IMG/VR virus record: IMGVR_UViG_3300032327_000597
Coordinates: 1 to 42,314 of that record
Direction: 5' to 3' (one strand)
DNA length: 42,314 nucleotides
DNA from: a virus
Lineage: Duplodnaviria > Caudoviricetes
Part shown: positions 10,986 to 36,321 of the stretch, piece after piece
Layout of the letters: each line of letters starts with the position of its first letter
Position numbering within the stretch: the first letter of the stretch is position 1
Notes under the pieces: generated by a model
The model's input: the letters and a program-made list of their open reading frames with translations, nothing else
What the model was told of the DNA's origin: nothing
Databases searched by the model: none
Translations under genes and position numbers: made by a program

Positions 10986-11273
10986 ATGCTGATTAAGTTA
11001 AAATCAATTGTAACTGCCTATTTTAGGCCAAGCAAGTTAGGGCAGCTGCATGAATATAAAAAGGTCAAGACTGTGGCTGTTCTCAGGTGTGACAACTGTA
11101 GAGAACTATTTGAACGTGATAAGTCCAAGATGGCACCTTCTCGACTTGGAAACAATCATTTTCATGTCTGTGGGAATTGTGATGCCAAACGCTTTGCTCA
11201 ACGCAAAGGTGTAGAACGCAGGACAATTTGGGATCGTCCTGCATCAAGTGCTGATGATATCAGTAAACTTTAA
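10986..11273 (+). CDS. Hypothetical protein with two CxxC motifs
   Basis: 95 aa containing CDNC and CGNC; TAAATA lies 4 nt upstream of the ATG. Confidence 0.75.
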   Translation: MLIKLKSIVTAYFRPSKLGQLHEYKKVKTVAVLRCDNCRELFERDKSKMAPSRLGNNHFHVCGNCDAKRFAQRKGVERRTIWDRPASSADDISKL

Positions 11274-12094: not shown

Positions 12095-12794
12095 CTTCGA
12101 TGATCCTTGTATAAAGTTCTGTGTCACCTGACATTTTAATTTCACCTGCTACCATAAGGTGTACGTGTGTCGGTTCTAATATTTTTAACAGTGTTTGACT
12201 GTGTGTGATTATTAAAAAACCTCTATCTTTATTTCTCAAATAATCTTTTAATAATATTGCTACTAATACAGCATCTTTATCAGATAACCCAACATCTATT
12301 TCATCTATGATAATCATCTTTGGATCTGATAATATCATATGTATTAACTCATTGCGTTTTGAAGCACTCGCAGTCATGCCCATGCTGTTGGAAATATGAT
12401 CTCCATGGTCTGGACTAAATTCTAATAGTTCACAACATGCCGTATATTTAAGTTGTAAATCAGAAATATCGCTGCCATCTTTACCGTATAGCTCTTCAAT
12501 CAGCTCCCAGTTGGTAAGACTGTCAAACTCTGGTGGATGCTGGGCTGTGACAAATATACCCTGCCGGTATCTAAGTTCTGCTTCTAATGATTCTATCTTT
12601 TTACGTTTAAAAGTAATAGTACCTTCAGTTATTTGTATGCTAGGATGGCCAGCAATGACCTGTGCTAGAGCACTTTTGCCGCTGTGTTTTGGACCCATGA
12701 CAGCATGAATCTCACCAGCTTTGATTTCTAAGTTGACGTTTTGTAACAATGGATTTGATTCAGATACTGCTGTTATATTTTTTATTTTTAGCAT
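12072..12794 (-). CDS. sufC: SufC-family ABC ATPase (divergent signature motif)
   Basis: GEIHAVMGPKHSGKS (Walker A), QHPPE, IIIDEIDVGL (Walker B) and LIITH...PTHVHLM, all in SufC order. Confidence 0.85.
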   Translation of the reverse strand: MLKIKNITAVSESNPLLQNVNLEIKAGEIHAVMGPKHSGKSALAQVIAGHPSIQITEGTITFKRKKIESLEAELRYRQGIFVTAQHPPEFDSLTNWELIEELYGKDGSDISDLQLKYTACCELLEFSPDHGDHISNSMGMTASASKRNELIHMILSDPKMIIIDEIDVGLSDKDAVLVAILLKDYLRNKDRGFLIITHSQTLLKILEPTHVHLMVAGEIKMSGDTELYTRIIEDGYSELS

Positions 12795-12800
12795 GGATTA

Positions 12801-12829
12801 ATTATACTACATTTAGTGGGGTAAATCAA
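12801..12829 (-). promoter_or_regulatory. Sigma70-type promoter, probably leaderless sufC transcript
   Basis: TTGATT-N17-TATAAT with the ATG 6 nt after the -10 box. Confidence 0.7.
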
Positions 12830-13380
12830 CCTTGGGTTGATAGTCGGTTGTTAATAACTGTCCAATCAATGATCTTCCATATGTTGTTTAGATAGGCCTT
12901 TTTATCAGCTTGATAGTCAAGAGCAAAAGAGTGTTCCCACCAGTCGATCAACAACAATATATCTTTCTTGATTTCGTGATTAACTATGGTTTTAATTTTG
13001 CCATCTTGAGCAATATACACCCACCCTGATCCCTGTATACCCATTGCGATCTTTTCAACAGCGGCCTTGCATTTGTCAAAGGTACCAAAATGTGTTTGGA
13101 TAAATTCTAAACTGGCACCTACAGGCTTGTTTGATCCGCTAGGAGATTTGAATTGGCTAAAGTAGATAGAATGTAAAAATGCTCCTGCTTCATTGAAGTC
13201 AGCATCTCCTTCCCCTGCATTAAATCGATCAACATAGCCTTTATACAGTTTGCCATAATGATAGTCTATAGTCTGTTTGCTCAGGCTACGACCTAGCCCA
13301 TCGCGTGGGTAGCTCAGAGGAAACTGCTCCAGCTTCTTAATGTCCTTGCCTTCTACTACATATTTGATAAAATTAAACAT
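12826..13380 (-). CDS. sod: Fe/Mn superoxide dismutase
   Basis: YHYGK...YV, LHSIYF, GSGWV and DWWEHS motifs retain the four metal ligands. Start set at ATG 13380. Confidence 0.9.
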   Translation of the reverse strand: MFNFIKYVVEGKDIKKLEQFPLSYPRDGLGRSLSKQTIDYHYGKLYKGYVDRFNAGEGDADFNEAGAFLHSIYFSQFKSPSGSNKPVGASLEFIQTHFGTFDKCKAAVEKIAMGIQGSGWVYIAQDGKIKTIVNHEIKKDILLLIDWWEHSFALDYQADKKAYLNNIWKIIDWTVINNRLSTQG

Positions 13381-13585
13381 GGCTCTTTTTATGGTTAAAT
13401 ATTCTGTTAAACGGTCAATAGGACATCTGAGGATCCGCAAGCAAAGAATTTTTCCTATTTCTTCTTATAGCACAGCCAATGTGGCTCAACGGCGAATCAG
13501 CGTTTGACACCTAATTCTTTTTTTGTACTATGGTTATTTATAGGCTTAAATAAAGTACATACATTTTTATATAAGGAAATTTAAA

Positions 13586-13825
13586 ATGGAAATCATCATT
13601 GGACTTGTTGTTATTGCTGTAGTTGCTTACTTTGTATTCTTTCGTAAGAAAGAAGAAATTGTAGAAGCCGCTCCATACAAAGTAGAAACACCAGTTGTAG
13701 TTGCTGAACCAGTTGTAGTTGCTGAACCAGTTGTTGAAGTGAAAAAAGCTACTCGCAAGCCTAAAGCAACAGGCGACAAACCAGTTGCCAAAGCCAAGAC
13801 CACTCGTAAGCCTAAAGCAAAGTAA
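13586..13825 (+). CDS. Small membrane-anchored protein with PVVVAE repeats and Lys-rich tail
   Basis: N-terminal TM helix, 18-bp tandem repeat, AAGGA RBS and upstream TAAATA. Confidence 0.75.
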   Translation: MEIIIGLVVIAVVAYFVFFRKKEEIVEAAPYKVETPVVVAEPVVVAEPVVEVKKATRKPKATGDKPVAKAKTTRKPKAK

Positions 13826-14849
13826 GAGATTTAGCCTGCTCGGCTAGAGCAAATGATGCAAGATTTTTCCCCTTGCTCTCTGCCATGATATCGTGTGTGT
13901 TGAGAAACCCCAGAGCCCATTCATTTACTGGTGTATTCCAGTAGAGTTCTGAATGGGCTCTCATCTTTTGTTTCTTAAATCCCTGTTCTAATAGCTTTTT
14001 ATAATCTGGCATTATATTAGGATTATGATCTACAAGATAGTCCTCTCTACTAATACTGTAGTGCATAGTGGGCCTAACACCGCGCCAGCTGTCTAGTAGT
14101 CTTGACATCCTAGGATCGTTGGGCTGAATATATTCTCCCTCACGTATCCAGAAATGGTGTACGTCTAAGACCGTGGGTATGATATCACTGAGACTAAGGC
14201 AGTCGTCGAGTCCCCATGAGTTTTCTTCGTTTTCAAGTGTAAGACAATTACGTGCTTCTGGGCTAAGCCGCTTATATGCTTCTCTAATACCTTCAGGACC
14301 TCGCTTGCCGCTGATATGTACATTAATTTTAAGGTCCTGGAACTTTTGTCCATAGCCCATCCAACGAGCCATATTGGCATGATACTCAAACTCCTCTATT
14401 GATCGTTCCACTATACCTGGATTTTCACTCGCCATTACTGTAAACTGTCCGGGATGGAAAGACAATCTAACATTGCGAAGCCTAGCATGATCACCCACCT
14501 GCATGAAATGTTTCTCGCAGTAGGCAACAACATCTGGACGAAGCCAAAAGTAAGACCAATCGCGCTGAGTATAGACGGGAAGTATGTCGCTACTGATACG
14601 CACCATTCGAAGATGTTTTTCTAGGCCGCCTACCTTTTCTATAAGTTTATAAATGGCGCTGAGATTGTGTACCATGATATCCCAAAGCCGCTGTTCTGCT
14701 ACTTCTTTAGTCTGTCGGTTTAGCCAAGCTACTGTAGTGGTAGTAGTATTGAGCTCTCTGTCAGCGGCATTGATTTTCATGCCATCGATTTCGCTGGGAT
14801 CAGTGATCCATTTACAAGGAAATCCTATACGTTTAAGTGTCTGTGTCAT
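13812..14849 (-). CDS. uvsE: UV-damage endonuclease
   Basis: RISSD, RLSFHPGQF, LENEE, LDVHH, HYS and AHS motifs of UvsE/UVDE. Confidence 0.92.
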   Translation of the reverse strand: MTQTLKRIGFPCKWITDPSEIDGMKINAADRELNTTTTTVAWLNRQTKEVAEQRLWDIMVHNLSAIYKLIEKVGGLEKHLRMVRISSDILPVYTQRDWSYFWLRPDVVAYCEKHFMQVGDHARLRNVRLSFHPGQFTVMASENPGIVERSIEEFEYHANMARWMGYGQKFQDLKINVHISGKRGPEGIREAYKRLSPEARNCLTLENEENSWGLDDCLSLSDIIPTVLDVHHFWIREGEYIQPNDPRMSRLLDSWRGVRPTMHYSISREDYLVDHNPNIMPDYKKLLEQGFKKQKMRAHSELYWNTPVNEWALGFLNTHDIMAESKGKNLASFALAEQAKSLTLL

Positions 14850-14855
14850 ACATTA

Positions 14856-14884
14856 ATTATAACACAGATTTTGGTAAAAATCAA
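14856..14884 (-). promoter_or_regulatory. Sigma70-type promoter, probably leaderless uvsE transcript
   Basis: TTGATT-N17-TATAAT with the ATG 6 nt after the -10 box. Confidence 0.65.
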
Positions 14885-15330
14885 CCTTCGTATATAGCCG
14901 AATTAGCACCGTGTTCAGCACATTCGACTCGCACACAATAGCAACGACCTTTGGATTCTTTGCGTATCAATCGATCTGCAAAATTAAAAGCATGTTCGGC
15001 AAACTTTTCTGCGCCTACACCATCAAAGATCCTGGTTTCCGCTAGACCCAATGCTTCCAGTTCCTGGAACTTGGCCAAGTGTGGATCAGAACGATCCAGA
15101 GCCAGCTTGTGATCAAAGCTATCCTCTAACCAGGCCTTGAGCTTTTTAAGACCACCAAAGTCCACTGCCCAATTCTTATCATCTAGATGATCACAGCCAA
15201 ATGTAAATGTGAATGCCAGACTATAGCCATGTAGTAGATGACAGTGACTGTGATCTGCGTTTGGTTGGCGGAATACGGCACTTAGCCCGATGTTATGTCC
15301 ATAATGCTTTGTTGAATAATACTTTGCCAT
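14881..15330 (-). CDS. queD: 6-carboxy-tetrahydropterin synthase (PTPS/QueD family)
   Basis: CHLLHGYS, VDFGGLK, FDH and C-terminal EHGANSA motifs. Confidence 0.85.
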   Translation of the reverse strand: MAKYYSTKHYGHNIGLSAVFRQPNADHSHCHLLHGYSLAFTFTFGCDHLDDKNWAVDFGGLKKLKAWLEDSFDHKLALDRSDPHLAKFQELEALGLAETRIFDGVGAEKFAEHAFNFADRLIRKESKGRCYCVRVECAEHGANSAIYEG

Positions 15331-15432
15331 TGTTGTCTCCTTAAGATTAGCAATGACACGCAGAGTTTATATTCCGGGATGAGCGTCCTAGTCCGGATAT
15401 AACTATTATAACACCTGTATTTAGATTGTCAA
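15331..15432 (-). promoter_or_regulatory. Sigma70 promoter plus structured 5' leader of queD
   Basis: TTGACA-N16-TATAAT (15405-15432), then a hairpin with arms 15365-15377 and 15393-15403, then an AGGAG RBS. Confidence 0.7.
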
Positions 15433-15747
15433 CTATTGCTTGAAAGTTTTTCTGACTTGGTCTTTGATTTCTCGAACTTCTCGAACAATATCCATTAGGA
15501 TTTCAGTTTCTTCTTTTCTAAAATTGATAAAACACCGAATAACTCTCATAGTCCAATACCACCAAACAACCGCCAATATCAGTGAAAGGGAAACAATAGC
15601 CCAGCCTAATTTTAGATCGTGGACGGTCTGCCATTCAAATATTATATATCCGATAGTGGAGGTTACAACGGCGCTGAGCATTAGCCACCAGCGTCTTTGA
15701 ATTTCGATACGTTTTAAATCTGTTATATGTCTTGTTAATGTTTTCAT
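15433..15747 (-). CDS. Hypothetical two-TM membrane protein
   Basis: 104 aa with two hydrophobic helices; AAGGA RBS. Confidence 0.7.
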   Translation of the reverse strand: MKTLTRHITDLKRIEIQRRWWLMLSAVVTSTIGYIIFEWQTVHDLKLGWAIVSLSLILAVVWWYWTMRVIRCFINFRKEETEILMDIVREVREIKDQVRKTFKQ

Positions 15748-15837
15748 TTTAATTTCCTTGTAGTGAGCCTATATATGCCTGATGAGAATTTTGTCCCCAT
15801 ACTCATAATTATCTCACTTATCAAGGAAATTAAACTA

Positions 15838-16470
15838 TCATAGATTATCTGTTGGGCGTTTACTTACAATCTGATCAGCAAGACCATATGCAACTGCTTC
15901 TTCAGAACTTAAAAATGTATCGAATTTCATGGTTTCAAAAAGTTCTTCGTAGGTCTTGCCCGCAGTATTATGACGAACATATAATTCTGTTAGGCGTTTA
16001 TTGATACGGACTGATTCTTCGAAGGATCGTTTGGCATCTTCAAACTGCAGATCCTGCACATGTACGCTGCCACGTGTGCCGGGTGTACCCGAGCTAACAC
16101 GATGTATCATTGTGCGGGCTTCTGGCAATACAAATCTCTTGCCGGGTGCTCCTGCTTGTGCTAGAAAACTACCCATACTACAGGCCTGACCCATAACATA
16201 GGTTGCCACGTCCGGTTTAATAAACTGCATAACATCATAAATGCTCAAACCTGATGATACAGCGCCGCCTGGTGAGTTAATATAGAAGTTAATGTCCTTT
16301 TCTGAATCCTCTGATTCTAAAAACAGCAACTGAGCTACGATTACGTTAGCTGAATGATCATCAACTGGACCGTTTAAGAACACAATACGTTCTTTGAGCA
16401 AGCGGCTATAAATGTCATAGGCACGTTCGCCACTGCTTGTTTTTTCTACCACCATTGGGATAAGGCTCAT
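15838..16470 (-). CDS. clpP: ClpP protease proteolytic subunit
   Basis: [28 protein letters not shown] (Ser), MIH (His) and DTFLS (Asp). Confidence 0.95.
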
Positions 16471-27185: not shown

Positions 27186-27898
27186 TCAGTTGTTTTAAAT
27201 GGTTTGCCAATGTAGGCATTTTCCAGCTGTGTTAGTATCTTACGCTTCATTCTACGTATGATCTTGTGATTGTGATTCCAATCAAAGGATTTTAAATAAC
27301 TGTACCACCAGGAATTTTTATGTCTACGGGCTTGATTTGTATCTAGATATCGTTTGATAGTTGTAGGATCATAGTCGAATCTGTCAATTAATTCGCAGGC
27401 AATATTAAATGCAAACGCACCCATTTCATCTCGATCACCAAAATATTCCTGTAGTTTACGCTCGCTGGTCAATTCTGCTGTGCTTTGATAGCCAGGTAAT
27501 GGTTTAAAATTACGAGCACGAAACTGTCGCATGTGTATCATTTCATGCAAAATTATGTGGGCAAATCTCCGGCTCATCCTGCGCCATCTATTCATAGTTA
27601 TAGTCATCTTGACATCGCTTGGATGATAGTTGAGATTTAGTTCAATAGCTGGTTTGTCTTTACGATCGAGCTCACTGTAGTAGACTCCGCCCATGTAGAT
27701 ATAGCCAGGGACGTTGTCTTCTTCAACTAGTTTGATTATCTTGATGGGCAACAGAGGCTTGATGTGACTGCTGACTATTCTGTTGATTTGATCGGGTGTA
27801 AGAGATTTACCCACTATTTTCTTGTTTAGAGAAAAAAAGCAGGAATATAGCGTGTTGCGATCCAGTGCAGACCAATTGACGGTTTTAGCGTTTGCCAC
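27170..27898 (-). CDS. HExxH zinc-metallopeptidase-like protein (paralog)
   Basis: LHEMIHMRQ...DEMGAFAFNIA; GTG start with GGAG RBS and TAAATA upstream. Confidence 0.75.
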   Translation of the reverse strand: MANAKTVNWSALDRNTLYSCFFSLNKKIVGKSLTPDQINRIVSSHIKPLLPIKIIKLVEEDNVPGYIYMGGVYYSELDRKDKPAIELNLNYHPSDVKMTITMNRWRRMSRRFAHIILHEMIHMRQFRARNFKPLPGYQSTAELTSERKLQEYFGDRDEMGAFAFNIACELIDRFDYDPTTIKRYLDTNQARRHKNSWWYSYLKSFDWNHNHKIIRRMKRKILTQLENAYIGKPFKTTDWLTY

Positions 27899-27962
27899 GG
27901 TATTTCTCCAGTGATCTTACTTACTCTATTTACGCTAGACTCTATTACAATTTTATATATGC

Positions 27963-28256
27963 TTAACGACCACGCCCTGCTGAGCGTGTAGCGGGCTTTT
28001 TAACCAAGACCTGCGGTTTTTTAGCCTGTTGAACCTGGGCTGTTTTAGCACCCGGAACCTTGGGAGTTGCAGCAACTTTTTGTGCGGCCGCAATAAAGGG
28101 GTTTTTGCTTGTTTTTTTAGCTTCTTCTGCCATGACTTTTCTCGCTAATTTCTTTGCTTCTAACCTGGCCAGCAGTGCTAACAGTTCATCACGGGTCAGC
28201 ATTTGCCCCCAGGTTGCGACCTTTTTAGGTTCTTCTCGTTGTTTTCTTGTTGCCAT
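27963..28256 (-). CDS. Small Lys/Ala-rich basic protein
   Basis: 97 aa ending RSAGRGR. Confidence 0.6.
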   Translation of the reverse strand: MATRKQREEPKKVATWGQMLTRDELLALLARLEAKKLARKVMAEEAKKTSKNPFIAAAQKVAATPKVPGAKTAQVQQAKKPQVLVKKPATRSAGRGR

Positions 28257-28275
28257 TACTACCTTATTATAATAC

Positions 28276-28385
28276 TGGTGCTGGTTACCGTGTCCAGCGA
28301 AGGCTTATGGCTCCTTCGGCATATGACTTCAGTCTGTTGCCCTCACACTGATCGACTCTAGGAGTCAGGCTGCGGAGTTACCTAT
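28276..28385 (-). ncRNA. Candidate structured small RNA ending in ACCA
   Basis: Four short hairpins; the last (GCTGG/CCAGC) is followed by ACCA. Lies directly 3' of tRNA-Leu. Confidence 0.5.
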
Positions 28386-28386
28386 T

Positions 28387-28471
28387 TGGTGGGAATGGTC
28401 GGACTCGAACCGACACGTCTTGCGACGCCAGAACCTAAATCTGGTGCGGCTGCCAATTACGCCACATTCCC
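28387..28471 (-). tRNA. tRNA-Leu(TAG)
   Basis: Cloverleaf, CCAGA-TTTAGGT-TCTGG anticodon arm, long variable arm, CCA encoded. Confidence 0.95.
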
Positions 28472-28555
28472 AATTAAATCTAAGAACCCTACACCAAAAA
28501 AATACCGCTCTTTGAATTCTGGATGAGGAATTCTAATAACCTTGTACTCTTTATA

Positions 28556-28717
28556 TTATCTTACAAATGCTTGAAAATAATACGTTGTTGGAACTGTGAG
28601 ATACTCACGTATAATACTAACTCCACCCTGCGGTTGCCAACCATCTGCTAACAAGTTGGATACTAACTTGCAAAACTCATCGTGTGTTGCGTTAACAACT
28701 TTATATTCAGTTATCAT
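28556..28717 (-). CDS. Small protein, DUF1737-like (53 aa)
   Basis: Hand-translated MITEYKVV...LLADGWQPQGGVS...YFQAFVR. Confidence 0.65.
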   Translation of the reverse strand: MITEYKVVNATHDEFCKLVSNLLADGWQPQGGVSIIREYLTVPTTYYFQAFVR

Positions 28718-28727
28718 AATATTTTTG

Positions 28728-28798
28728 TGCCTTGTGAGAGAATCGAACTCCCGTAACAGGATTACAAATCCAGCGTAATACCTCTATACGAACAAGGC
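28728..28798 (-). tRNA. tRNA-Thr(TGT)
   Basis: Cloverleaf with loop TTTGTAA and one anticodon-stem mismatch; CCA not encoded. Confidence 0.88.
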
Positions 28799-28820
28799 TT
28801 AAAACTTTACTGCGAAACTT

Positions 28821-28923
28821 TTACGGCTGGGAGGACTCGAACCTCCAAATGCGTTGACTAAGTCGTTGCACCGTCCTAGACCCGGGTATGGGTCAGAGCT
28901 CTGCCATTTGCTCACAGCCGTAA
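28821..28923 (-). ncRNA. tRNA-like RNA without a canonical anticodon loop
   Basis: Acceptor ACGGCTG/CAGCCGT, D arm and GGAGG-TTCGAGT-CCTCC T arm. The central region has a 6-nt-loop hairpin plus an extra hairpin. Own promoter at 28929-28957. Confidence 0.7.
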
Positions 28924-28965
28924 GTATAATTATACACATTCGTCGACTGTAGAGCAAGAGCTGAT

Positions 28966-29214
28966 TTAACCACCCAGTGTTTGACTCTTTGTATCCATTT
29001 TGAGTATATAAGCACCAGCGTCAATTTCACCATTTTGGATCTCTAAAAGCGCATCGATTGTTGTTTGATGTTTTCCATGACGATGCTGTTTCTTAAGCTC
29101 ACGCAGGCGTTCTGCAGCAACCAGCACCATGTCGTAGCGTAGGTTATCTACGTTGCGAACGCATTTTTCGAGGTCCAGTTGCGGGTGGCGGCTGTCAATC
29201 TTTTTCTTAATCAT
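28966..29214 (-). CDS. rpoZ: RNA polymerase omega subunit homolog
   Basis: RYDMVLVAAERLREL and TTIDALLEIQNGEI align by eye with omega RFDLVLVAARRARQM and TTVIALREIEEGLI. Promoter TTGACG-N17-TATAAT at 29247-29275. Confidence 0.75.
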   Translation of the reverse strand: MIKKKIDSRHPQLDLEKCVRNVDNLRYDMVLVAAERLRELKKQHRHGKHQTTIDALLEIQNGEIDAGAYILKMDTKSQTLGG

Positions 29215-29258
29215 ATCTACCTTTAGTTGTACTGCGTTGATGTTTTATTATACAGAGA

Positions 29259-29708
29259 TTATTTGGTAACGTCAACCACTTGATATTCGTAATTGATTGT
29301 GTCTTCATTTTCACGGAAGGTAACAGCACCATTCTTATGATGGAAACGGCGTGCCATTTCTGTTTTTGGACTCAGAGTCACAAAGCGAGTGACGTTGGGA
29401 AATTGACGTTTGATCTCATCTACAGTTTCTATCAGCAGTTCTTTGCCAGCACCTGGAGCATACGACCAAATGGTGTAGAAAATTGCCGTATTGGGCATGA
29501 GTGCGTCTTGGGCTAGTTCAGCTACTGACGCAGGAACATGATCGCAAAGACTAACACATACCATGGCTTTTGGATCCTCGCCCTCAACTATGCTTGAGAT
29601 AAAACGATTTTCGCTAACACGGAACTCAGCAGGAATCTCAGGACGAACTGGATCATCCTTGAGAAACTTGATAAGTGGACTGGCCAAATCTGTGATAAAT
29701 GTTAGCAT
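29259..29708 (-). CDS. Hypothetical protein, GNAT-like C-terminus
   Basis: IFYTIWSY..GAG...VTLSP...A.RFH.KNG; preceded by TAAATA-N5-ATG. Confidence 0.7.
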   Translation of the reverse strand: MLTFITDLASPLIKFLKDDPVRPEIPAEFRVSENRFISSIVEGEDPKAMVCVSLCDHVPASVAELAQDALMPNTAIFYTIWSYAPGAGKELLIETVDEIKRQFPNVTRFVTLSPKTEMARRFHHKNGAVTFRENEDTINYEYQVVDVTK

Positions 29709-29729
29709 ATAATTATTTACCTTTCTTGT

Positions 29730-29960
29730 CTATTCTGGAGTGGCCTCGGCGACAACTTCTTCAACAACTGGAGCCTTGTAGCCAGGACGACTTTTTAACA
29801 CAGCAATCCTACGTTGTATCTTTGCCGCATTCTTTTTGCGAGCGCCGCCTAGCATTTTTTCCAACTGAGCAATGTTTAGTGGGCCTAGTCTTTCCTTGCC
29901 ATTCTTGGTGCGCATTGGATCTGCTTGACGAGTTTTTTGACCTGTTTTATTGCTTGCCAT
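29730..29960 (-). CDS. Small basic hypothetical protein
   Basis: 76 aa; AAGGA RBS. Confidence 0.7.
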   Translation of the reverse strand: MASNKTGQKTRQADPMRTKNGKERLGPLNIAQLEKMLGGARKKNAAKIQRRIAVLKSRPGYKAPVVEEVVAEATPE

Positions 29961-29977
29961 TTTTGTGTCCTTTATTG

Positions 29978-30051
29978 TGGAGCGGGATAAGAGAATCGAA
30001 CTCTTGACTGGAGATTGGAAATCTCTAATTTTGCCATTAAACTAATCCCGC
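29978..30051 (-). tRNA. tRNA-Gly(TCC)
   Basis: GCG...CGCTCCA ends, anticodon loop TTTCCAA. Confidence 0.93.
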
Positions 30052-30060
30052 ATGTTGTTA

Positions 30061-30089
30061 ATTATACAGCCTAAGATACAAACTGTCAA
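30061..30089 (-). promoter_or_regulatory. Internal sigma70 promoter upstream of tRNA-Gly
   Basis: TTGACA-N17-TATAAT. Confidence 0.85.
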
Positions 30090-30094
30090 CTATT

Positions 30095-30171
30095 TGGAGC
30101 ACAGGGTGGGACTCGAACCCACGGCTGGACGGCTTTGCAGGCCGCTACATTGGCCACTCTGTCACCTGTGC
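30095..30171 (-). tRNA. tRNA-Cys(GCA)
   Basis: Loop CTGCAAA, U73 discriminator, CCA. Confidence 0.93.
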
Positions 30172-30177
30172 AGTGTT

Positions 30178-30269
30178 TGGCAGAGACGGTGAGATTCGAA
30201 CTCACGGTACTGATTACTCAATACGACAGGTTAGCAACCTGCTGCCTTCGGCCACTCAGCCACGTCTCT
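30178..30269 (-). tRNA. tRNA-Ser(GCT)
   Basis: Loop TTGCTAA, long variable arm, GCCA end. Confidence 0.95.
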
Positions 30270-30302
30270 ATTACTGCTGTAAAACCATTATAACATCTAT
30301 TT

Positions 30303-30392
30303 TGGCGGAAAGTGTGAGATTCGAACTCACGGAGCCCTTTCGAACTCGCTAGTTTTCAAGACTAGATCCTTAAACCACTCGGACAACTTTCC
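30303..30392 (-). tRNA. tRNA-Ser(TGA)
   Basis: Loop CTTGAAA, long variable arm, GCCA end. Confidence 0.95.
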
Positions 30393-30399
30393 ATGTTAG

Positions 30400-30497
30400 T
30401 GTTAGTTATTGTTGGGTCGGGAAACTAACAAACCCCGTGAGCACAGCCCATCCTGTTTTCGTGTCAGCGGATGCGGAATATGGTTACAGGTCCGCTC
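30400..30497 (-). ncRNA. Candidate multi-pseudoknot RNA
   Basis: AGCGGA/TCCGCT stem crossed by CCTGT/ACAGG; CGGG/CCCG stem crossed by TGTTAGTT/AACTAACA. Confidence 0.5.
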
Positions 30498-30516
30498 GAT
30501 TACTTATTACAATATT

Positions 30517-30592
30517 TGGGGTGCTGGATGGGATTCGAACCCACGACAACCGGAATCACAATCCGGGATTCTACCGCTGAACTACCAACACC
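30517..30592 (-). tRNA. tRNA-His(GTG)
   Basis: Loop TTGTGAT, G-1:C73 pair, CCA. Confidence 0.95.
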
Positions 30593-30594
30593 AT

Positions 30595-30630
30595 TGGTCC
30601 GCCCAGAAGGAATCGAACCTCCATCAGGCA
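30595..30630 (-). pseudogene. 3' half of an interrupted tRNA (probably Arg)
   Basis: TGCC-TGAT-GGAGG-TTCGATT-CCTTC-TGGGCGG-ACCA; the acceptor strand pairs with the 5' half at 31174-31201. Confidence 0.88.
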
Positions 30631-30641
30631 TAAATAATTAT

Positions 30642-31106
30642 ATGCTCAAATGTATCCATTGCCAAACTGAATTAAAAGGAAAATATACCTTAAAATTCTG
30701 TTCTCGTTCTTGTTCAGCATCTCATAATAATAAAACTAAAGTTAAGCATGGTAAGTATGCTGAAAAAGAATGCGCTGTTTGTAAAACATTAACAAAGACT
30801 GCCACATATTGTAGTAAAACATGTAGCGGATTAGCTCGTCGAAAATACCTAACTGAAGAAGAAAAAACAGATGCTCGTCGTAGAGGGTGGCGTGAGCATA
30901 ATGCTAATTATAGAGCACAGCTATTAAATCAAACACCAGTTGATGCAGATCGAAATAATATTCGAATCTTTTATGATAACTGCCCGACTGGATATGAAGT
31001 AGATCATATTATACCTATCAGTAAGGGAGGATTACATACCCTATCTAATTTGCAGTATCTTACTGTTACTGAAAATCGTAGAAAAAGTAATAAACTAGTG
31101 GTCTGA
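30642..31106 (+). CDS. HNH homing-type endonuclease with N-terminal Cys zinc ribbons (154 aa)
   Basis: EVDHIIPISKGGLHTLSNLQYLTVTENRRKSN; CIHC, FCSRSC, CAVC and YCSKTC motifs; start at TAAATA-N5-ATG 30642. Confidence 0.9.
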   Translation: MLKCIHCQTELKGKYTLKFCSRSCSASHNNKTKVKHGKYAEKECAVCKTLTKTATYCSKTCSGLARRKYLTEEEKTDARRRGWREHNANYRAQLLNQTPVDADRNNIRIFYDNCPTGYEVDHIIPISKGGLHTLSNLQYLTVTENRRKSNKLVV

Positions 31107-31173
31107 CTGGAGAGGATCGAACTCCCATCAAAAGGGTAGAAACCTTCTGTACTATCCATTGTACTACAGTCAG
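31099..31173 (-). tRNA. tRNA-Arg(TCT)
   Basis: CTGACTG/CAGTCAG acceptor, loop TTTCTAC, A20 in the D loop, ACCA end overlapping the HNH stop codon. Confidence 0.9.
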
Positions 31174-31201
31174 CCTGTACTATCCATTGTACTACGGGCG
31201 G
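31174..31201 (-). pseudogene. 5' half of the interrupted tRNA
   Basis: CCGCCCG-TA-GTACAATGGATAGTAC-AGG; 21 bp (31175-31195) are identical to the D-arm region of tRNA-Arg(TCT) at 31147-31167. Confidence 0.88.
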
Positions 31202-31222
31202 ATTTGTTTGTTAAATAGCATT

Positions 31223-31888
31223 ATGCCAAAAAAATTACTATTGCTTGTTGCGTTACTTCTTATATCTTTGTCTGCTCGTGCCGTACAAGATGGTGTATAC
31301 GGAATGATAGCCTATGGTGATGTTATAGGACCTAGTTCAATTTCCGTTGCCAACGGTGCATTTAATGGTGCACCATATGCTAATGGCAACGCCAACAATA
31401 ACTTTAATCTAGCAAATGATGGACGTTTTTCCGTTAATGGGTCTGTAGGGTATATTAAAAGCAACATCGGCATTGAGTTCAAATATATTAATCTAGGGTC
31501 ACAACATCAAACTGGTGTCAACGGTAACAGCCTACAAGCAGGTGAAACTGGAACATATGGTGGACACTATTATGGGATCAATGGACAGTACTTTATGCCC
31601 ATTATGGACAACAAGCACGATATATTCTTTTCGCTGGGCGCCGGTCAGATGCACACTACCTTTGCCACAGTTAATTCTCAAGCATTCACAAGTTCTGCAC
31701 CACAAAGTGCTACACAAAATGAGTGGGCCGCATTGCTGGGTGTTGGAGCTAGATTTAGTATCACCGATCACTTCGGCATCAATCTCGAAGCTGATCGTAT
31801 CACTCCGGTGACACACGGACTTCTTAACTCTGGTATCTATAACAACGCCTACACTATACTTTCTGTAGGTTTCGTTGTTAGTTACTAA
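31223..31888 (+). CDS. Outer-membrane beta-barrel protein (OmpA-TM/Ail/Lom-like)
   Basis: Signal peptide MPKKLLLLVALLLISLSARA, amphipathic strands, GVGARF and terminal SVGFVVSY; preceded by TAAATA-N5-ATG. Confidence 0.8.
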   Translation: MPKKLLLLVALLLISLSARAVQDGVYGMIAYGDVIGPSSISVANGAFNGAPYANGNANNNFNLANDGRFSVNGSVGYIKSNIGIEFKYINLGSQHQTGVNGNSLQAGETGTYGGHYYGINGQYFMPIMDNKHDIFFSLGAGQMHTTFATVNSQAFTSSAPQSATQNEWAALLGVGARFSITDHFGINLEADRITPVTHGLLNSGIYNNAYTILSVGFVVSY

Positions 31889-31890
31889 TT

Positions 31891-31964
31891 TGGCTCCGGG
31901 CCAGGGAATTGAACCCCGTCAAGCAGGTTTGGAGTCTGCGGTGCTACCGTAACACTTGCCCGGA
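31891..31964 (-). tRNA. tRNA-Trp(CCA)
   Basis: Loop CTCCAAA, GCCA end. Confidence 0.9.
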
Positions 31965-31970
31965 ATTGTT

Positions 31971-32045
31971 TGGTAGTAGCGGTGAGACTCGAACCAACAC
32001 CTTGCTCCGTATGAAGGAGGTGCACGACCATTATGCTACATTACC
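31971..32045 (-). tRNA. tRNA with CAT anticodon (Met/fMet/Ile2 not resolved)
   Basis: Loop TTCATAC; mismatches in acceptor, anticodon and T stems; ACCA end. Confidence 0.75.
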
Positions 32046-32354
32046 TTATGCTATAAACCAATCATCCTCATCTTTGGTAACGATTGATTCATTTCCGTCG
32101 TACTCATCTATTCTAAATGCAGTTCCCTCGGGAACCCAAGCAACGGTTAAATCATTGTAGTTGCTGACATAAATGTCTGGAAACTTCAATCCTATATAAG
32201 AACGAAGGGCATCATCATCTTCATCCTCTAGATATTTTACAATAGTAGGATCAAATAGTATTTCTGGATATTCCTTGTTCCAAGTGTACCAGCCTGCTCC
32301 AAATCCAGGAGAGTAGACCACAGCAACCTTACCATCACGCACGACTTTATTCAT
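32046..32354 (-). CDS. Hypothetical phage protein (102 aa)
   Basis: MNKVVRDGKVAVVYSPGFGAGW...FRIDEYDGNE; AGGAG RBS. Confidence 0.85.
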   Translation of the reverse strand: MNKVVRDGKVAVVYSPGFGAGWYTWNKEYPEILFDPTIVKYLEDEDDDALRSYIGLKFPDIYVSNYNDLTVAWVPEGTAFRIDEYDGNESIVTKDEDDWFIA

Positions 32355-32382
32355 CTTGCTCTCCTTTACAGTTGAAAATATT

Positions 32383-32528
32383 CGGCTTTCGCCTTCCACA
32401 ACTATACTCCTCAACTTCCCATCCATCGGCACCTGTGGTCAGACTTGCGATGTTTGTACGGCCCCGCATTCTAGTGCGAGTGATCCTTGAGGTAGACTGC
32501 TAGGCCTAAACCCGCCTAGCATCGGGCC
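32383..32528 (-). ncRNA. Candidate multi-helix structured RNA
   Basis: GCTAGGC/GCCTAGC, CCTCAA/TTGAGG, CTCGCA/TGCGGG, CATCG/CGATG and GGC-GAAA-GCC helices. Confidence 0.5.
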
Positions 32529-32630
32529 TTTGTTGTTTTACCCATTAAACTACCGTAGACTGCTTTTCCATAATACTACGTAACTATGGTCCACTTGATC
32601 TACAGGCAGGCTTCGAACCTGCAAAACAAA
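32529..32630 (-). ncRNA. Circularly permuted tRNA-like RNA (YrlA/Y-RNA-like topology)
   Basis: Order is T arm, acceptor 3' strand CTGTAGA, 39-nt linker, acceptor 5' strand TCTACGG, D arm; closed by TTTGTT/AACAAA. Confidence 0.7.
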
Positions 32631-32632
32631 TA

Positions 32633-32746
32633 TGGTGTTTGTGTTGGCGCTTGAATCCACGGTAGCCCTACTCTTCATGGCACCTCTTGCGTCGACCGGT
32701 ATCATAGCAAGTTCAGTGTTGTTCCATTGTAGCTACTACACAAACA
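32633..32746 (-). ncRNA. Candidate structured RNA with terminal stem and CCA end
   Basis: TGTTTGTGT/ACACAAACA terminal helix plus CCA; internal GTAGC/GCTAC and ATGATACC/GGTGCCAT pairings. Confidence 0.6.
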
Positions 32747-32752
32747 TTGATT

Positions 32753-32851
32753 TGGCTCCCATACAGGATTCGAACCTGTGGTGCATACTCTCTCCCGGCG
32801 CCGGGAGGTTGGAGTTTGGGCTACACCAGCTGCCCTCTCATGCGATGGGGG
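32753..32851 (-). ncRNA. tRNA-like RNA with anticodon arm replaced by a long hairpin
   Basis: Perfect T arm ACAGG-TTCGAAT-CCTGT, short acceptor CCCAT/ATGGG, GCCA end; GGTGTA/TGCACC, ACTC/GAGT and CTCCCGG/CCGGGAG helices. Confidence 0.65.
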
Positions 32852-32857
32852 TGCTCT

Positions 32858-32890
32858 TGGCGGATCATTTAACTTTCGAATCGCTCTAAA
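32858..32890 (-). pseudogene. Possible degraded tRNA 3' remnant (Asp-like end)
   Basis: TTCGAAA loop followed by ...TGATCCGCCA; the T stem pairs poorly. Confidence 0.35.
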
Positions 32891-32907
32891 CAATGATAAA
32901 TATTAGT

Positions 32908-33678
32908 ATGAAACAAAAATATTTTATCCAGGCTCGATGTAAAAATTGTAATAACCCTTATTCTAAACAGCAGGATTCTAATAGAGCCCACTGTAGTGAT
33001 CAGTGTCGCAAAGAATTTCGCAACGCTAACAAAAAAATTGTTGAGACAAAAGAATGTCTCGAATGTAATATTGCCCATAATAAACCAGGCATATTTTGTT
33101 CCTCAAGCTGTTCTGCAAAATATTCTAATGCTAGAAAAGACTATAGTAAAATAAAAACTGGACCTGTTAAAGGAACTTTACCTGCTAATATATTTTGTAA
33201 ATTGCCACACTCGATAGTAGAATTTTGCACTTGCGAAATATGTAATACTACATTTACTCGAAACTCAATACACAAAGGATCTAAACGGGTATGTAGAGAT
33301 GAGACCTGTATTAAAAAATTTAAACGCAAAGTAAGAGTTGGTAAATGTGGAGGATTTCGTGCTAATTCTACTAGGGTTACTAGGACAATCTACAAAGGCC
33401 AGCAGATGGATTCTGGTGCAGAACTAGCATTTGCAAAATTACTAGATACTAATAATATAGATTGGGACAAAAATTCTACTATCTGGTTTGAGTATTTGCC
33501 TGGCAAAAAATACTATCCTGATTTTTTCTTACCAAAATACAATGCCTGGATAGAAATAAAAGGCAAATACTATGTTAGAGAAGACGACGAACTTCGTTGG
33601 AAGTCTGTTCCTAATCTTGAAGTTATATGGTCAAATAATATTACTTTGCCAAAAGTATATGGCGAGGATGAAGGGTAA
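32908..33678 (+). CDS. PD-(D/E)XK endonuclease with N-terminal Cys zinc ribbons (homing-type, 256 aa)
   Basis: DSGAE...YYPDFFLPKYNAWIEIKG; CKNC, HCSDQC, CLEC and FCSSSC motifs; start at TAAATA-N5-ATG 32908. Confidence 0.85.
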   Translation: MKQKYFIQARCKNCNNPYSKQQDSNRAHCSDQCRKEFRNANKKIVETKECLECNIAHNKPGIFCSSSCSAKYSNARKDYSKIKTGPVKGTLPANIFCKLPHSIVEFCTCEICNTTFTRNSIHKGSKRVCRDETCIKKFKRKVRVGKCGGFRANSTRVTRTIYKGQQMDSGAELAFAKLLDTNNIDWDKNSTIWFEYLPGKKYYPDFFLPKYNAWIEIKGKYYVREDDELRWKSVPNLEVIWSNNITLPKVYGEDEG

Positions 33679-33739
33679 CGATCCCTCCTGAATATCCGGC
33701 GTGACAGGCCGGCGACCACTCCGTGCAGTCCCCATCCCC
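33660..33739 (-). tRNA. tRNA-Asp(GTC) with atypical T loop
   Basis: CCGGC-CTGTCAC-GCCGG anticodon arm, G73, CCA; T loop ATCGTTA; 3' 19 nt overlap the endonuclease ORF. Confidence 0.85.
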
Positions 33740-33824
33740 TAAATTTTGAGACTTACTCCTTCGATCACTTCTCACCGGCTTCAAGGCGCAGGGCGAGTTA
33801 GTCAAATCCATTACGGGCGAATAC

Positions 33825-33898
33825 TGGTTGCTGGGATAGGACTTGCACCTATACCTTTGGCTTATGAGACCAATGTGCGGCTTTTACACTACCCTGCT
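33825..33898 (-). tRNA. tRNA with CAT anticodon (initiator-like 1:72 mismatch)
   Basis: Loop CTCATAA; A1:A72 and A4:A69 mismatches; T loop TGCAAGT; ACCA end. Confidence 0.75.
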
Positions 33899-33906
33899 AT
33901 TGTTAA

Positions 33907-33982
33907 TGGTGGAGGTTAGGAGATTCGAACTCCTCGCCTATTGCTTGCAAAGCAATTGCTCTACCAAATGAGCTAAACCCCC
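33907..33982 (-). tRNA. tRNA-Ala(TGC)
   Basis: G3:U70 pair, loop TTTGCAA, ACCA end. Confidence 0.95.
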
Positions 33983-33998
33983 ATTGTAATACATTATG

Positions 33999-34071
33999 CT
34001 CCCCGGGTACGACTTGAACGTACGACCAAAAGATTAACAGTCTTCTACTCTACCGACTGAGCTACCGGGGA
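33999..34071 (-). tRNA. tRNA-Asn(GTT)
   Basis: Loop CTGTTAA, G73; CCA not encoded. Confidence 0.93.
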
Positions 34072-34095
34072 GCATAATGCACTACCTAAAACTTA

Positions 34096-34310
34096 CCATT
34101 AGTTGTATTGTCATGTTATGGACTAGGCCCAACCCTAGTCGTTTGCTTTTACCGTCCCATGCTTACTTTACAGGATGATCAGTCCCATCTCGTCATAGTC
34201 CAACTCGCGTTAGTTAGTCTACAGTTATACTGTAGCATTTGCCGGCGCTCCCTAACGTTGAAAGTGCATTATCCCATACAGGGATTTTTCCATAACAACA
34301 CAACTAATGG
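34096..34310 (-). ncRNA. Candidate ~215-nt structured RNA closed by a long terminal helix
   Basis: 11-bp and 9-bp inverted repeats join the ends; internal hairpins at 34121-34140, 34219-34235 and 34271-34285. Confidence 0.6.
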
Positions 34311-34334
34311 CGTCCCTAACCGATAGACGATGGC
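34308..34334 (-). pseudogene. Internally deleted tRNA remnant (Glu/Asp-like)
   Basis: GCCATCGTCTATCGGTTAGGGACGCCA is a D-arm sequence fused to a GGACGCCA 3' end. Confidence 0.45.
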
Positions 34335-34397
34335 TGTATGACTCTACCTTTGTGGCCCTTGCCAGTGCTATATTATTAGTGGTTACTATAAAATCTA

Positions 34398-34532
34398 TTA
34401 TAGATTAAACACATGAACAATACATTTATATACTAGAAATGCTAAAAATGCATATGCTACTAGTTTCATAATAAATCTTACCTTTTTCTCACCAGGTGTT
34501 ATTATTTCATTCTCATAATCGTTTAGTGCCAT
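34398..34532 (-). CDS. Small membrane protein (44 aa)
   Basis: MALNDYENEIITPGEKK followed by a TM helix; AGGAG RBS. Confidence 0.7.
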   Translation of the reverse strand: MALNDYENEIITPGEKKVRFIMKLVAYAFLAFLVYKCIVHVFNL

Positions 34533-34564
34533 TTTAATACTCCTTTTTAATGTTATGCTGCTAG

Positions 34565-34641
34565 TGGTACACTGTACGGGATTCGAACCCGTGAATGTCA
34601 CCGTGAAAGGGTGATGACTTAAGCCACTTGTCGAACAGTGT
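34565..34641 (-). tRNA. tRNA-Glu(TTC)
   Basis: Loop CTTTCAC, ACCA end. Confidence 0.93.
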
Positions 34642-34650
34642 ATAAAACTT

Positions 34651-34735
34651 TGGTGGAGCATCCTGGGATCGAACCAGGCATGTCTAAAGACGGCGGATTT
34701 ACAGTCCACTGCATCACCATTGATGCTTCTGCTCC
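34651..34735 (-). tRNA. tRNA-Tyr(GTA)
   Basis: Loop CTGTAAA, long variable arm, ACCA end. Confidence 0.95.
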
Positions 34736-34971
34736 ATTGTAAAATTGTAACACTCTCTCGGCTATACCGGTTCCGGCCCGTTCAGGGGGCTATGAGAGAG
34801 TGTAATAAAGCATACTGCTTTCATCCTCTTAGACGCTGGATCAACGCACCACAATACGCTTTATTACGCTAGATTTTTTTACACCACACAAGGTGCTCCA
34901 TCCCTAGGTCCGCCCGTTTGTGCTTGTTTTCAGTGTAGCACAGGACCTCGTTTCCTGCAACCACTCCCTGC

Positions 34972-35142
34972 TTATCTTGCTGTATGAAACGCCGGATTCA
35001 CTCTACGTGATTCCATGGCTATCACAGCACGATCAATCTTGCTTTGAAACAACTGCTGTTTCTGTTCTTCACTTAGAGTGAATCCAGGAATTTCTGTTGC
35101 TTGTCTAACAATGCGTTCATTCAATTTTGTATAATCAATCAT
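34972..35142 (-). CDS. Small hypothetical protein (56 aa), first gene after the attenuator
   Basis: Hand-translated MIDYTKLNERIVRQATEIPGFTLSEEQKQQLFQSKI...; AAGGAG RBS. Confidence 0.65.
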   Translation of the reverse strand: MIDYTKLNERIVRQATEIPGFTLSEEQKQQLFQSKIDRAVIAMESRRVNPAFHTAR

Positions 35143-35157
35143 GTTTTCACTCCTTAT

Positions 35158-35196
35158 AAAAACAAAAAACCCTAGGTTTTTAATCTAGGGCTTTGT
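35158..35196 (-). terminator. Intrinsic terminator (attenuator) at the head of the tRNA island
   Basis: CCCTAG/CTAGGG hairpin followed by TTTTTTGTTTTT; its 5' arm overlaps an alternative 13-bp helix. Confidence 0.8.
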
Positions 35197-35219
35197 TAAA
35201 CTATAACTATTTTATATAA

Positions 35220-35348
35220 TTACGTTAACAAAACCCTCATCTCCGTCGGCTCATTACCATCACAATTTGAACTAATCACTGACCAATAGGTGGACATCAC
35301 CTGTCTGGCTATGGATAGTAATTCCAAGTGTAATGATGTTTGTAGCAT
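35220..35348 (-). CDS. Putative attenuator leader peptide (42 aa)
   Basis: MLQTSLHLELLSIARQVMSTYWSVISSNCDGNEPTEMRVLLT; its last codons form the 5' arm of the antiterminator. Confidence 0.65.
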   Translation of the reverse strand: MLQTSLHLELLSIARQVMSTYWSVISSNCDGNEPTEMRVLLT

Positions 35349-35375
35349 TTGTTTCTTAATTTCCTTAATAATTAT

Positions 35376-35404
35376 ATTATACGTTTATTTATCCCAACTG
35401 TCAA
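35376..35404 (-). promoter_or_regulatory. Main promoter of the tRNA island (sigma70 with nested TAAATA)
   Basis: TTGACA-gttgggataaataaacg-TATAAT. Confidence 0.88.
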
Positions 35405-35519
35405 TGGATTTTTGATCTTTTGGTAAATTTTGTTCTAATTTGCATACCGTACAGAACCATCTGTTGTTTCCCCACAACGGCATTAGTTCACCACCACACG
35501 CACATTTATATTGTTTCAT
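35385..35519 (-). CDS. Small zinc-ribbon protein (44 aa)
   Basis: Hand-translated MKQYKCACGGELMPLWGNNRWFCTVCKLEQ... Confidence 0.55.
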   Translation of the reverse strand: MKQYKCACGGELMPLWGNNRWFCTVCKLEQNLPKDQKSIDSWDK

Positions 35520-35604
35520 TATAATAGTACCTTTGTATAAATTCGTCAATCAAAAAATCCAACCGTAACTTAGACTCTGCTAAATTTCAGTTGGATTTTA
35601 GGTT

Positions 35605-36321
35605 TTATTTCTTTTTGTTAATCACAGCAACAAGGTATCCGTTGTGCCAATCGCTATGCTGAAGTGATATTTGAGGATGAGTACCATCACCAGTGGTTAT
35701 AATTTCAATACTGGCAACAACTTCAAGTCCTAATTCTGCAATAGCCTGTTCTGTACCGGCTTTAACTGCAACGCCGTTGTAGTCATCAACGATTAAAACA
35801 TATTGATCATCAAGAGCAGGCTGAGCAATTACAACTCCGTCGTATTGATCTTCTTGACTGTGAGGGCCATCAAACATGTAAACATTAAATTTACCAATGT
35901 CTGCATAATTGACTTTCCTAAAGTCACTGTCGATATAATTGAAATCGGCAGTATCGCCACTGGCGGCACGGAGATTCTGTTCAAACTCGCCTCTTACGCT
36001 TTCTGATGTGGCACCCCAAAGGAAATCACTCCAGTTGTCAATACACAAGGCCTTACATTTATTTCCAAATACTGCTGAGGCGGCTGTGGAGCCTTTCCAA
36101 CTGCCTACTTCTAAATATCTAGCGTTGTCTATGGAGCCCATTAGATTATTGATAAAATATCTGTATTTCTTTCCACTCATTCCATCCATGTAGCGAATAG
36201 AGTCTGGTATTTTAAAATTCATAGCAATAGAATCAAACCAAGCATTTTGTACTGCGGATGCCATTGGACTAGACCAATCACCTGTAAACTTTGTCGATGT
36301 TTCTTCGTGTAAACTTATCAT
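35605..36321 (-). CDS. Class I SAM methyltransferase (Methyltransf_24-like)
   Basis: YLEVGSWKGST, FDGPH and IVDD motifs. Confidence 0.85.
   Translation of the reverse strand: MISLHEETSTKFTGDWSSPMASAVQNAWFDSIAMNFKIPDSIRYMDGMSGKKYRYFINNLMGSIDNARYLEVGSWKGSTAASAVFGNKCKALCIDNWSDFLWGATSESVRGEFEQNLRAASGDTADFNYIDSDFRKVNYADIGKFNVYMFDGPHSQEDQYDGVVIAQPALDDQYVLIVDDYNGVAVKAGTEQAIAELGLEVVASIEIITTGDGTHPQISLQHSDWHNGYLVAVINKKK

Follow-up and report, generated by a model that had tools for sequence, protein, structure and literature searches.

A tRNA-Arg(TCT) gene in the tRNA cluster of the window (the entire analyzed stretch of 42,314 nucleotides, virus record IMGVR_UViG_3300032327_000597) is interrupted in its anticodon arm by a 546-bp insert that carries an HNH endonuclease gene and an intact replacement tRNA with the same anticodon. 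This insertion with a same-anticodon replacement is real and well supported. Comparison of related sequences suggests that the insert is probably a homing element without an intron, with a nuclease that would cut the resident allele but not the new one. The preliminary description of this DNA had proposed an intron-less cassette that destroys a tRNA gene at its anticodon and compensates with a recoded isoacceptor. The comparative evidence bears out the cassette, the destruction in the anticodon arm, and the same-anticodon tRNA; "recoded" is too strong, because the new tRNA is of an ordinary allele type that also occurs without an HNH gene nearby.

The window is a linear virus record with a completeness estimate of 12% and is apparently a fragment of a large phage. 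It contains 15 tRNA genes called by ARAGORN plus a tRNA-Tyr found with Rfam, together with tail-like, sugar-modifying, and metabolic genes. Sequencing runs sharing parts of the locus are labeled metagenome, freshwater, or lake water.

Both halves of the resident tRNA, the intact tRNA-Arg(TCT), and the antisense HNH gene lie where they had initially been placed (sequence, ARAGORN, Rfam, and Pfam; Table 1). The resident 5′ half comprises the acceptor strand, the D arm, and anticodon-stem bases 1 and 2, and the 3′ half comprises the final anticodon-stem base, the variable loop, the T arm, the acceptor strand, and CCA. As had been noted, the acceptor strands of the two halves pair at 7/7 positions (six Watson-Crick pairs and one G-T). 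Against a tRNA 3′-end profile, the orphan 3′ half reaches a score of 39.0, whereas only 0.28% of 4289 control windows reach 10 or more, and hence it is not a chance match. The insert contains the HNH ORF and the tRNA as its only genes, integrase being absent, and the HNH stop codon (31104–31106) does fall within the acceptor end (3′ end) of the new tRNA. Two details required adjustment. The GGC…GCC stem in which both halves were said to stop is partly real, but the new tRNA begins with the C at 31173 as its base 1, and 30628–30629 belong to the insert; the promoter motif, said to begin exactly at the junction, is near it but 3 nt inside the insert, the resident half starting at 30627 rather than 30630. 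Sigma-70-like sites, one of which is listed in Table 1, were found 10 times, compared with 5.3 ± 2.3 expected.

Table 1. Positions of the features at the split tRNA locus, in window coordinates. X2 is one of the sequencing runs that share parts of the locus.
Feature	Position	Strand	Basis or remark
Resident tRNA-Arg(TCT) 5′ half, 28 nt, tRNA positions 1–28	31174..31201	-	Sequence; first 30 letters identical in the X2 empty allele
Insert, 546 bp, swapping out 14 bases (tRNA positions 29–42, anticodon loop included)	30628..31173		X2 joint 30627–31174 with 14 other letters
Intact replacement tRNA-Arg(TCT), CCA encoded	31099..31173	-	ARAGORN; Rfam tRNA, 61.8 bits
HNH endonuclease gene, 154 aa	30642..31106	+	Pfam, PHROGs, alignment, structure model
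TAAATA late-promoter-like motif	30631..30636	+	5 nt before HNH ATG
Resident tRNA 3′ half, positions 43–76, CCA end at 30595	30595..30627	-	Profile score 39.0; empty-allele match
21-bp D-arm stretch, two copies, one per tRNA	31195–31175 and 31167–31147	-	Sequence
Sigma-70-like site, 11/12, at start of HNH gene, towards downstream tRNAs	30637..30665	-	Consensus match only
tRNA-His(GTG), downstream	30517..30591	-	ARAGORN

The locus was recovered in three allelic states. The full allele is spanned from 30234 to 32100 by a single contig of run X1 with 0 differences at a depth of 34, and was seen only in this run, the probable source of the window. Run X2 has a single left-hand contig, at depth 8.1, with two alternative continuations. 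The first is an empty allele (102 nt, depth 2.7), an unbroken tRNA in which 31174 is joined to 30627 via 14 other letters. By inspection, these letters form a complete 5-pair stem and a 7-base loop with the anticodon TCT, and the resident gene was therefore also a tRNA-Arg(TCT); the uninterrupted gene that the preliminary description had proposed to look for thus exists, and its anticodon can be read. Over 30586–30627, the resident 3′ half differs from this allele at two positions. The second continuation is a third allele (130 nt, depth 2.8, 0 differences) in which the resident 5′ half is kept and the new tRNA is followed directly by tRNA-His, the HNH gene and the old 3′ half both being absent; such an allele would be the outcome of the tRNA allele swap that had been suggested. 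Run X3 contains two non-overlapping pieces consistent with the HNH-less allele, and an X3 contig, from another study, bridges the 5′ junction (31138–31290) with one difference. An X4 contig that joins 31198–31132 (5 differences) to 30627 is a chimera.

The HNH cassette is optional, closely related alleles with common flanks being without HNH; lack of coverage over HNH in X2–X5 was not counted as absence. The three alleles correspond to the states that a homing cycle would produce, the empty and HNH-less ones being known from short contigs at depths below 3, from which the order of events is not readable. The tRNA-His beside the full cassette (30517–30591) has a D arm and anticodon stem unlike those of the His allele in X2, X3, and X4, which adjoins the empty and HNH-less alleles. 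An exact search of viral contigs gave no match for the resident 5′ half, the 3′ half, or the promoter junction, and blastn against 50,697 phage records returned tRNA matches only. A 76-aa gene downstream led to 21 loci, all too distant, two of them with a tRNA-Arg(TCT). In related phages (L002, L007, L010, L011, L013–L020), rare-anticodon tRNAs were called, e.g., Ser(ACT), Leu(AAG), Phe(AAA), and Asn(ATT).

An assembly artefact around the 21-bp D-arm repeat, as had initially been considered, is extremely unlikely. The restriction of the full allele to X1 could be read in this way, but the X1 contig crosses the locus unbroken and without differences, the 5′ junction recurs in X2 and X3, two more database proteins, encoded on contigs of 68 kb and 19 kb (perhaps from the same sample), read through the 3′ junction, and the layout is found throughout the nuclease family. 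The 21-bp D arm itself has 33 matches in viral contigs, all within intact tRNA-Arg(TCT) genes with one copy each and varied stems, and a partial HNH-like match is present at only one of these 33 loci. Since this D arm is common to phage tRNA-Arg(TCT) genes, the repeat need not be a target-site duplication.

The pairing of the acceptor strands, which persists here and at about six other loci, could also be taken to mean that the two halves are rejoined after transcription, in the manner of an intron or a split tRNA, an alternative already raised in the preliminary description. However, compared with the empty allele, the halves lack 14 bases including the whole anticodon loop. A ligated product would have no anticodon, which makes re-ligation very unlikely. 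In Rfam scans of 30560–31230 and 27800–35700, no intron family was matched, neither group I or II nor any other tRNA intron; the HNH gene has its own promoter motif and its own ORF, and in most relatives the halves are decayed or gone.

As had been described, the new tRNA has the same D arm as the old one and different stems. The two differ at 18/75 positions (four of these by inspection), all but one in stems; 6/10 anticodon-stem positions differ, while the D arm, anticodon loop, and variable loop are identical. ARAGORN and Rfam both recognize the new gene as a whole tRNA, with an acceptor stem of its own. Its anticodon stem also occurs in L023/L054, with no HNH gene nearby, and it shares 85% identity with a free-standing tRNA in L050, compared with only 62% for the tRNA beside the nearest nuclease relative, whose protein is 78% identical. 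The spare tRNA is thus not a fixed cargo of the nuclease. In a comparison set biased by the D-arm search, no position of the Arg(TCT) anticodon arm separates cassette (8) from ordinary (38) tRNAs. Among tRNA-Trp genes, a non-standard T loop (54 not T, 58 not A) is found in 8/25 cassette tRNAs (L072, L170, L176, L184, L186, L190, L204, and L209) and in 0/22 ordinary ones, a contrast (p 0.004, uncorrected for ~200 tests and for kinship) that we regard as a hint only.

The layout extends well beyond this locus. A protein search returned 1064 relatives of the HNH protein, and an alignment built from 52 of them retrieved the best 80 of 380 viral and the best 80 of 497 metagenome loci. With the window included, this set of 161 loci reduces to 126 that are non-redundant at 90% identity, 97 full-length and 29 domain-only. 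Among these best loci retrieved, a tRNA lies antisense at the nuclease stop codon in 56/97 full-length members, compared with 1/29 domain-only members (Trp 25, Met-CAT 12, Arg-TCT 8, Arg-CCT 8, Cys 2, and Pro 1). An orphan tRNA 3′ half directly behind the promoter was detected in 23 of the 52 testable members, again among the best loci retrieved, whereas 2/326 other TAAATA sites and 0.28% of the 4289 control windows show one; its offset is nearly fixed, the start being at offset 6–11 in 21/23 cases. At least the T-loop word is kept in 29/52 testable members versus 6/361 controls. Hence, the split halves flanking a nuclease and a tRNA, for which a search of other genomes had been proposed, recur across the family.

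At 8 of the 23 loci, the window included, an upstream 5′ half pairs 7/7 with the locus's own 3′ half, compared with 2/506 cross pairings; one of these eight (L204) is a false match and another (L145) is shifted by 2 nt. The paired halves differ between loci, which points to repeated recent entries, and decay is seen in many of the other remnants, as it should be if the halves are dead. A classifier with an accuracy of 453/633 gave 10/23 remnants the amino acid of their cassette tRNA, against 4.7 expected (p 0.001), the other 13/23 not being classed as matching. The nuclease clades track tRNA type, with 25 label changes versus 63.7 after shuffling, on a quick tree (97 rows, cut to 158 residues, strong support at 13/94 branches) in which kin share labels. 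The antisense layout is absent in 41/97 full-length relatives, 22 of which have a same-strand tRNA upstream and 15 no adjacent tRNA called; a CCA-ending remnant follows the stop in 4/22 same-strand members, compared with 15/301 controls. Cultured phages yielded no full-length family member and no record covering 80% of three queries, and a genome scan gave 10 loci, three with a called tRNA, and no intron-borne member as judged by tRNA calls and flanks.

Two further features of the family were observed. Within the Met(CAT) clades, the nuclease gene may point either way with respect to the tRNA, and both arrangements were seen (L057, L058, L059, L064, L078, L080, L081, and L089). At L083, L145, L201, and L205, the 3′ remnants look chimeric, the promoter-side half of the T stem being common to nuclease relatives and the far side differing. 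T-stem mismatches are present in 8/21 high-scoring remnants versus 26/690 intact tRNAs. The chimeric-looking remnants could reflect T-loop crossovers or plain decay.

The HNH protein consists of two Cys-rich modules, a long helix, and a C-terminal HNH domain for which both the Pfam HNH and HNH_4 profiles score above cut-off. Residues D121, H122, N136, and N145 are present; D121, H132, N136, and N145 are invariant among the 52 aligned proteins and H122 is nearly so. The structure model (pLDDT 90.9, pTM 0.53) has a helix of 26 residues, and this helix and the Cys-rich modules at the N-terminus resemble elements that bind DNA. The best solved matches in sequence and fold searches are HNH domains only, e.g., Cas8-HNH, the fold matches being weak (E 0.03), and Foldseek returned no match for the model at a threshold of E 0.001. 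Directly ahead of the gene, TAAATA is only 5 nt from the ATG, leaving no room for a ribosome-binding site. We take this motif to act as a promoter from its likeness to the T4 late promoter. It lies 4–5 nt ahead of the ATG in 68/97 full-length relatives among the best loci retrieved, and the window gene starting at 29708 has the same motif with the same spacer, which suggests that TAAATA is likely the phage's own late promoter.

A different function for the protein would be that of an RNA toxin that cuts host or rival tRNA-Arg, with the adjacent tRNA as its resistant antidote. The tracking of tRNA type by nuclease clade and the non-standard T loops of cassette Trp tRNAs would fit such a role, and the available text of PMC13096335 describes an HNH domain as needed by the Septu defence, which cleaves tRNA-Tyr. 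We nevertheless consider a toxin improbable. It leaves unexplained the location of the gene inside a matching tRNA gene with a fixed junction, the N-terminal part of the protein seems to be built for binding DNA, and HNH is dispensable while the tRNA persists, as in the HNH-less allele.

For the homing element that we favor, the following cycle can be envisaged. The HNH protein would be made late from its own promoter; because its gene is antisense to the tRNA operon, operon transcripts would not yield it. In a mixed infection, it would nick or cut the rival gene across the anticodon arm, where 6/10 stem positions differ, and repair would copy the cassette, the two dead halves and their flanks providing homology as exons do in intron homing. 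Breaking the resident gene would be cheap because the cassette tRNA reads the same codon. HNH could later drop out when the 3′ ends of the two tRNA genes recombine, after which a new tRNA allele and a 28-bp scar would remain; such a loss is the simplest reading of the HNH-less allele. Against a homing cut at this site stand the identity of the anticodon loop in the old and new genes and the difference between full and empty loci in the neighboring tRNA-His allele. In addition, known free-standing phage enzymes are described in the available part of PMC2988022 as usually cutting far from their own site.

The main rival explanation is intron-less homing with a distant cut (e.g., in tRNA-His or in T arms), in which the split tRNA would be an old accident of illegitimate recombination that was co-converted. 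It would fit the tRNA-His difference and the distant cutting by free-standing enzymes; the nearest relative (L137) also has a downstream tRNA-His, and SegB reads a T-arm motif of many tRNAs (PMC2330249, as far as its available text goes). However, the downstream neighbor varies in the family, whereas the type of tRNA found upstream follows the nuclease phylogeny. At several loci, the halves are fully paired and particular to that locus, which requires that new alleles were entered repeatedly, and the cassette's own 3′ half still has an intact T arm. On balance, a distant cut seems unlikely, if less so than the toxin.

Several known systems share parts of this arrangement, the nearest being SegB of phage T4 and a group of fungal mitochondrial elements. 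As in T4 and T6, where SegB is encoded, a free-standing nuclease gene lies in a phage tRNA cluster; the accessible portions of PMC2330249 and PMC13096335 describe SegB as a GIY-YIG enzyme that cuts tRNA genes and in mixed infection moves itself together with flanking tRNA genes. The layout seen here is not of the SegB type, since SegB sits between intact tRNA genes and favors no type, whereas the HNH gene is antisense inside a destroyed tRNA gene, beside a same-anticodon spare, and its clades keep one tRNA type. HNH genes are common in mycobacteriophage and plasmid tRNA arrays and have been proposed as a source of tRNA repertoire diversity (PMC5966550, PMC6409571, citing Pope et al. 2014); the available text of these reports describes adjacency of HNH and tRNA genes only, not insertion with a same-type replacement.

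The mobile endonuclease ORFs of fungal mitochondria follow the same logic, in that they bring along a substitute end for the gene they enter (Allomyces atp6; Glomus atp6, atp9, cox2, and nad3; PMC3630166, in its available sections). Like the cassette, these are intron-less endonuclease elements that insert into their target gene, push out its native part, and make up for the loss of function with a foreign copy of the disrupted target, in the cassette with the same anticodon in old and new genes. In the fungal elements, as those sections describe them, a C-terminal fragment is joined in frame to the 5′ part of the resident gene, which yields a hybrid protein gene. The phage cassette, in contrast, supplies a whole stand-alone tRNA; neither resident half survives as a gene, 14 bases are lost, and no hybrid is formed. 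Group I intron homing at a tRNA anticodon is represented by I-Ssp6803I in tRNA-fMet (PMC2677866, available text), which likewise places an endonuclease gene at the anticodon region with the halves as flanks; unlike group I introns, the cassette has no ribozyme, the anticodon is deleted, and function is restored by a second gene rather than by splicing. Intron-less homing is used here as defined in the available part of PMC2988022. Endonuclease-bearing tRNA introns in Al-Shayeb et al. were considered as a precedent and set aside, the words "intron" and "homing" being absent from the main text of either version. In the phage tRNA-gene literature, covered mostly through main texts available without subscription, we found no description of this layout.

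The cassette also resembles integrative elements in that it is inserted into a tRNA gene and the damage is compensated. Such elements rely on an integrase, and a duplicated end makes the tRNA gene whole again; here, by contrast, there is no integrase and the resident tRNA is not restored. Besides splicing and integrase duplication, destroying the gene and bringing a whole spare would be a third way for a selfish element to reside in a tRNA gene. The locus is unusually useful in that empty, full, and nuclease-lost alleles have all been seen, which gives the exact substrates for a cleavage test. Variation in phage tRNAs is usually attributed to codon use or to escape from host tRNA-cutting defences. 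If the homing mechanism is true, homing nucleases would be among the causes of the mosaic and divergent tRNA sets found in large phages, and the family would be a source of small nucleases (154 aa) whose natural specificities cover several tRNA genes.

A second cassette-like locus is present in the window at 32840–33739. It encodes a 256-aa endonuclease of another type (32908–33678, + strand) with a similar Cys-rich N-terminus and a non-HNH nuclease domain. The gene runs antisense into the 3′ end of a tRNA-Asp(GTC), TAAATA lies 5 nt before its ATG, and behind this motif is an apparent decayed tRNA 3′ remnant; no tRNA 5′ half was recognised at this locus. Many of its 93 relatives end in peptides resembling antisense tRNA ends. 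The tRNA-Asp beside this nuclease (33660–33739) also has a non-standard T loop.

We tentatively suggest that such cassettes could act more generally as tRNA gene drives in the arrays of large phages, a possibility that we rate clearly below the homing reading of the locus itself. At least two nuclease folds (HNH and the type at tRNA-Asp), each locked to one tRNA type, would draw on the conserved D and T arms in the dead halves for built-in homology, combine with any resistant allele that is available, and afterwards be lost. If so, repeated drive cycles would turn over tRNA alleles and push divergence of stems and T loops independently of host anticodon nucleases.

The tRNA cluster contains several further features. 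A 222-aa gene with a signal-peptide-like start (31220–31888, + strand) has no Pfam or PHROGs match, and a search for relatives found none; by eye, its product looks like an outer-membrane barrel protein. The tRNA-Tyr(GTA) at 34651–34735 was detected by Rfam and by relaxed ARAGORN and missed by default ARAGORN. More orphan tRNA-like 3′ ends or tRNA-like RNAs that ARAGORN missed are located at 32595–32779 and 28819–28846 (minus), and a weak Y-RNA-like match (E 0.15) covers 32527–32632. Elsewhere in the window, positions 11270–16470 encode a SufBD-domain protein with an ABC ATPase, a UvdE UV endonuclease, and a Clp protease.
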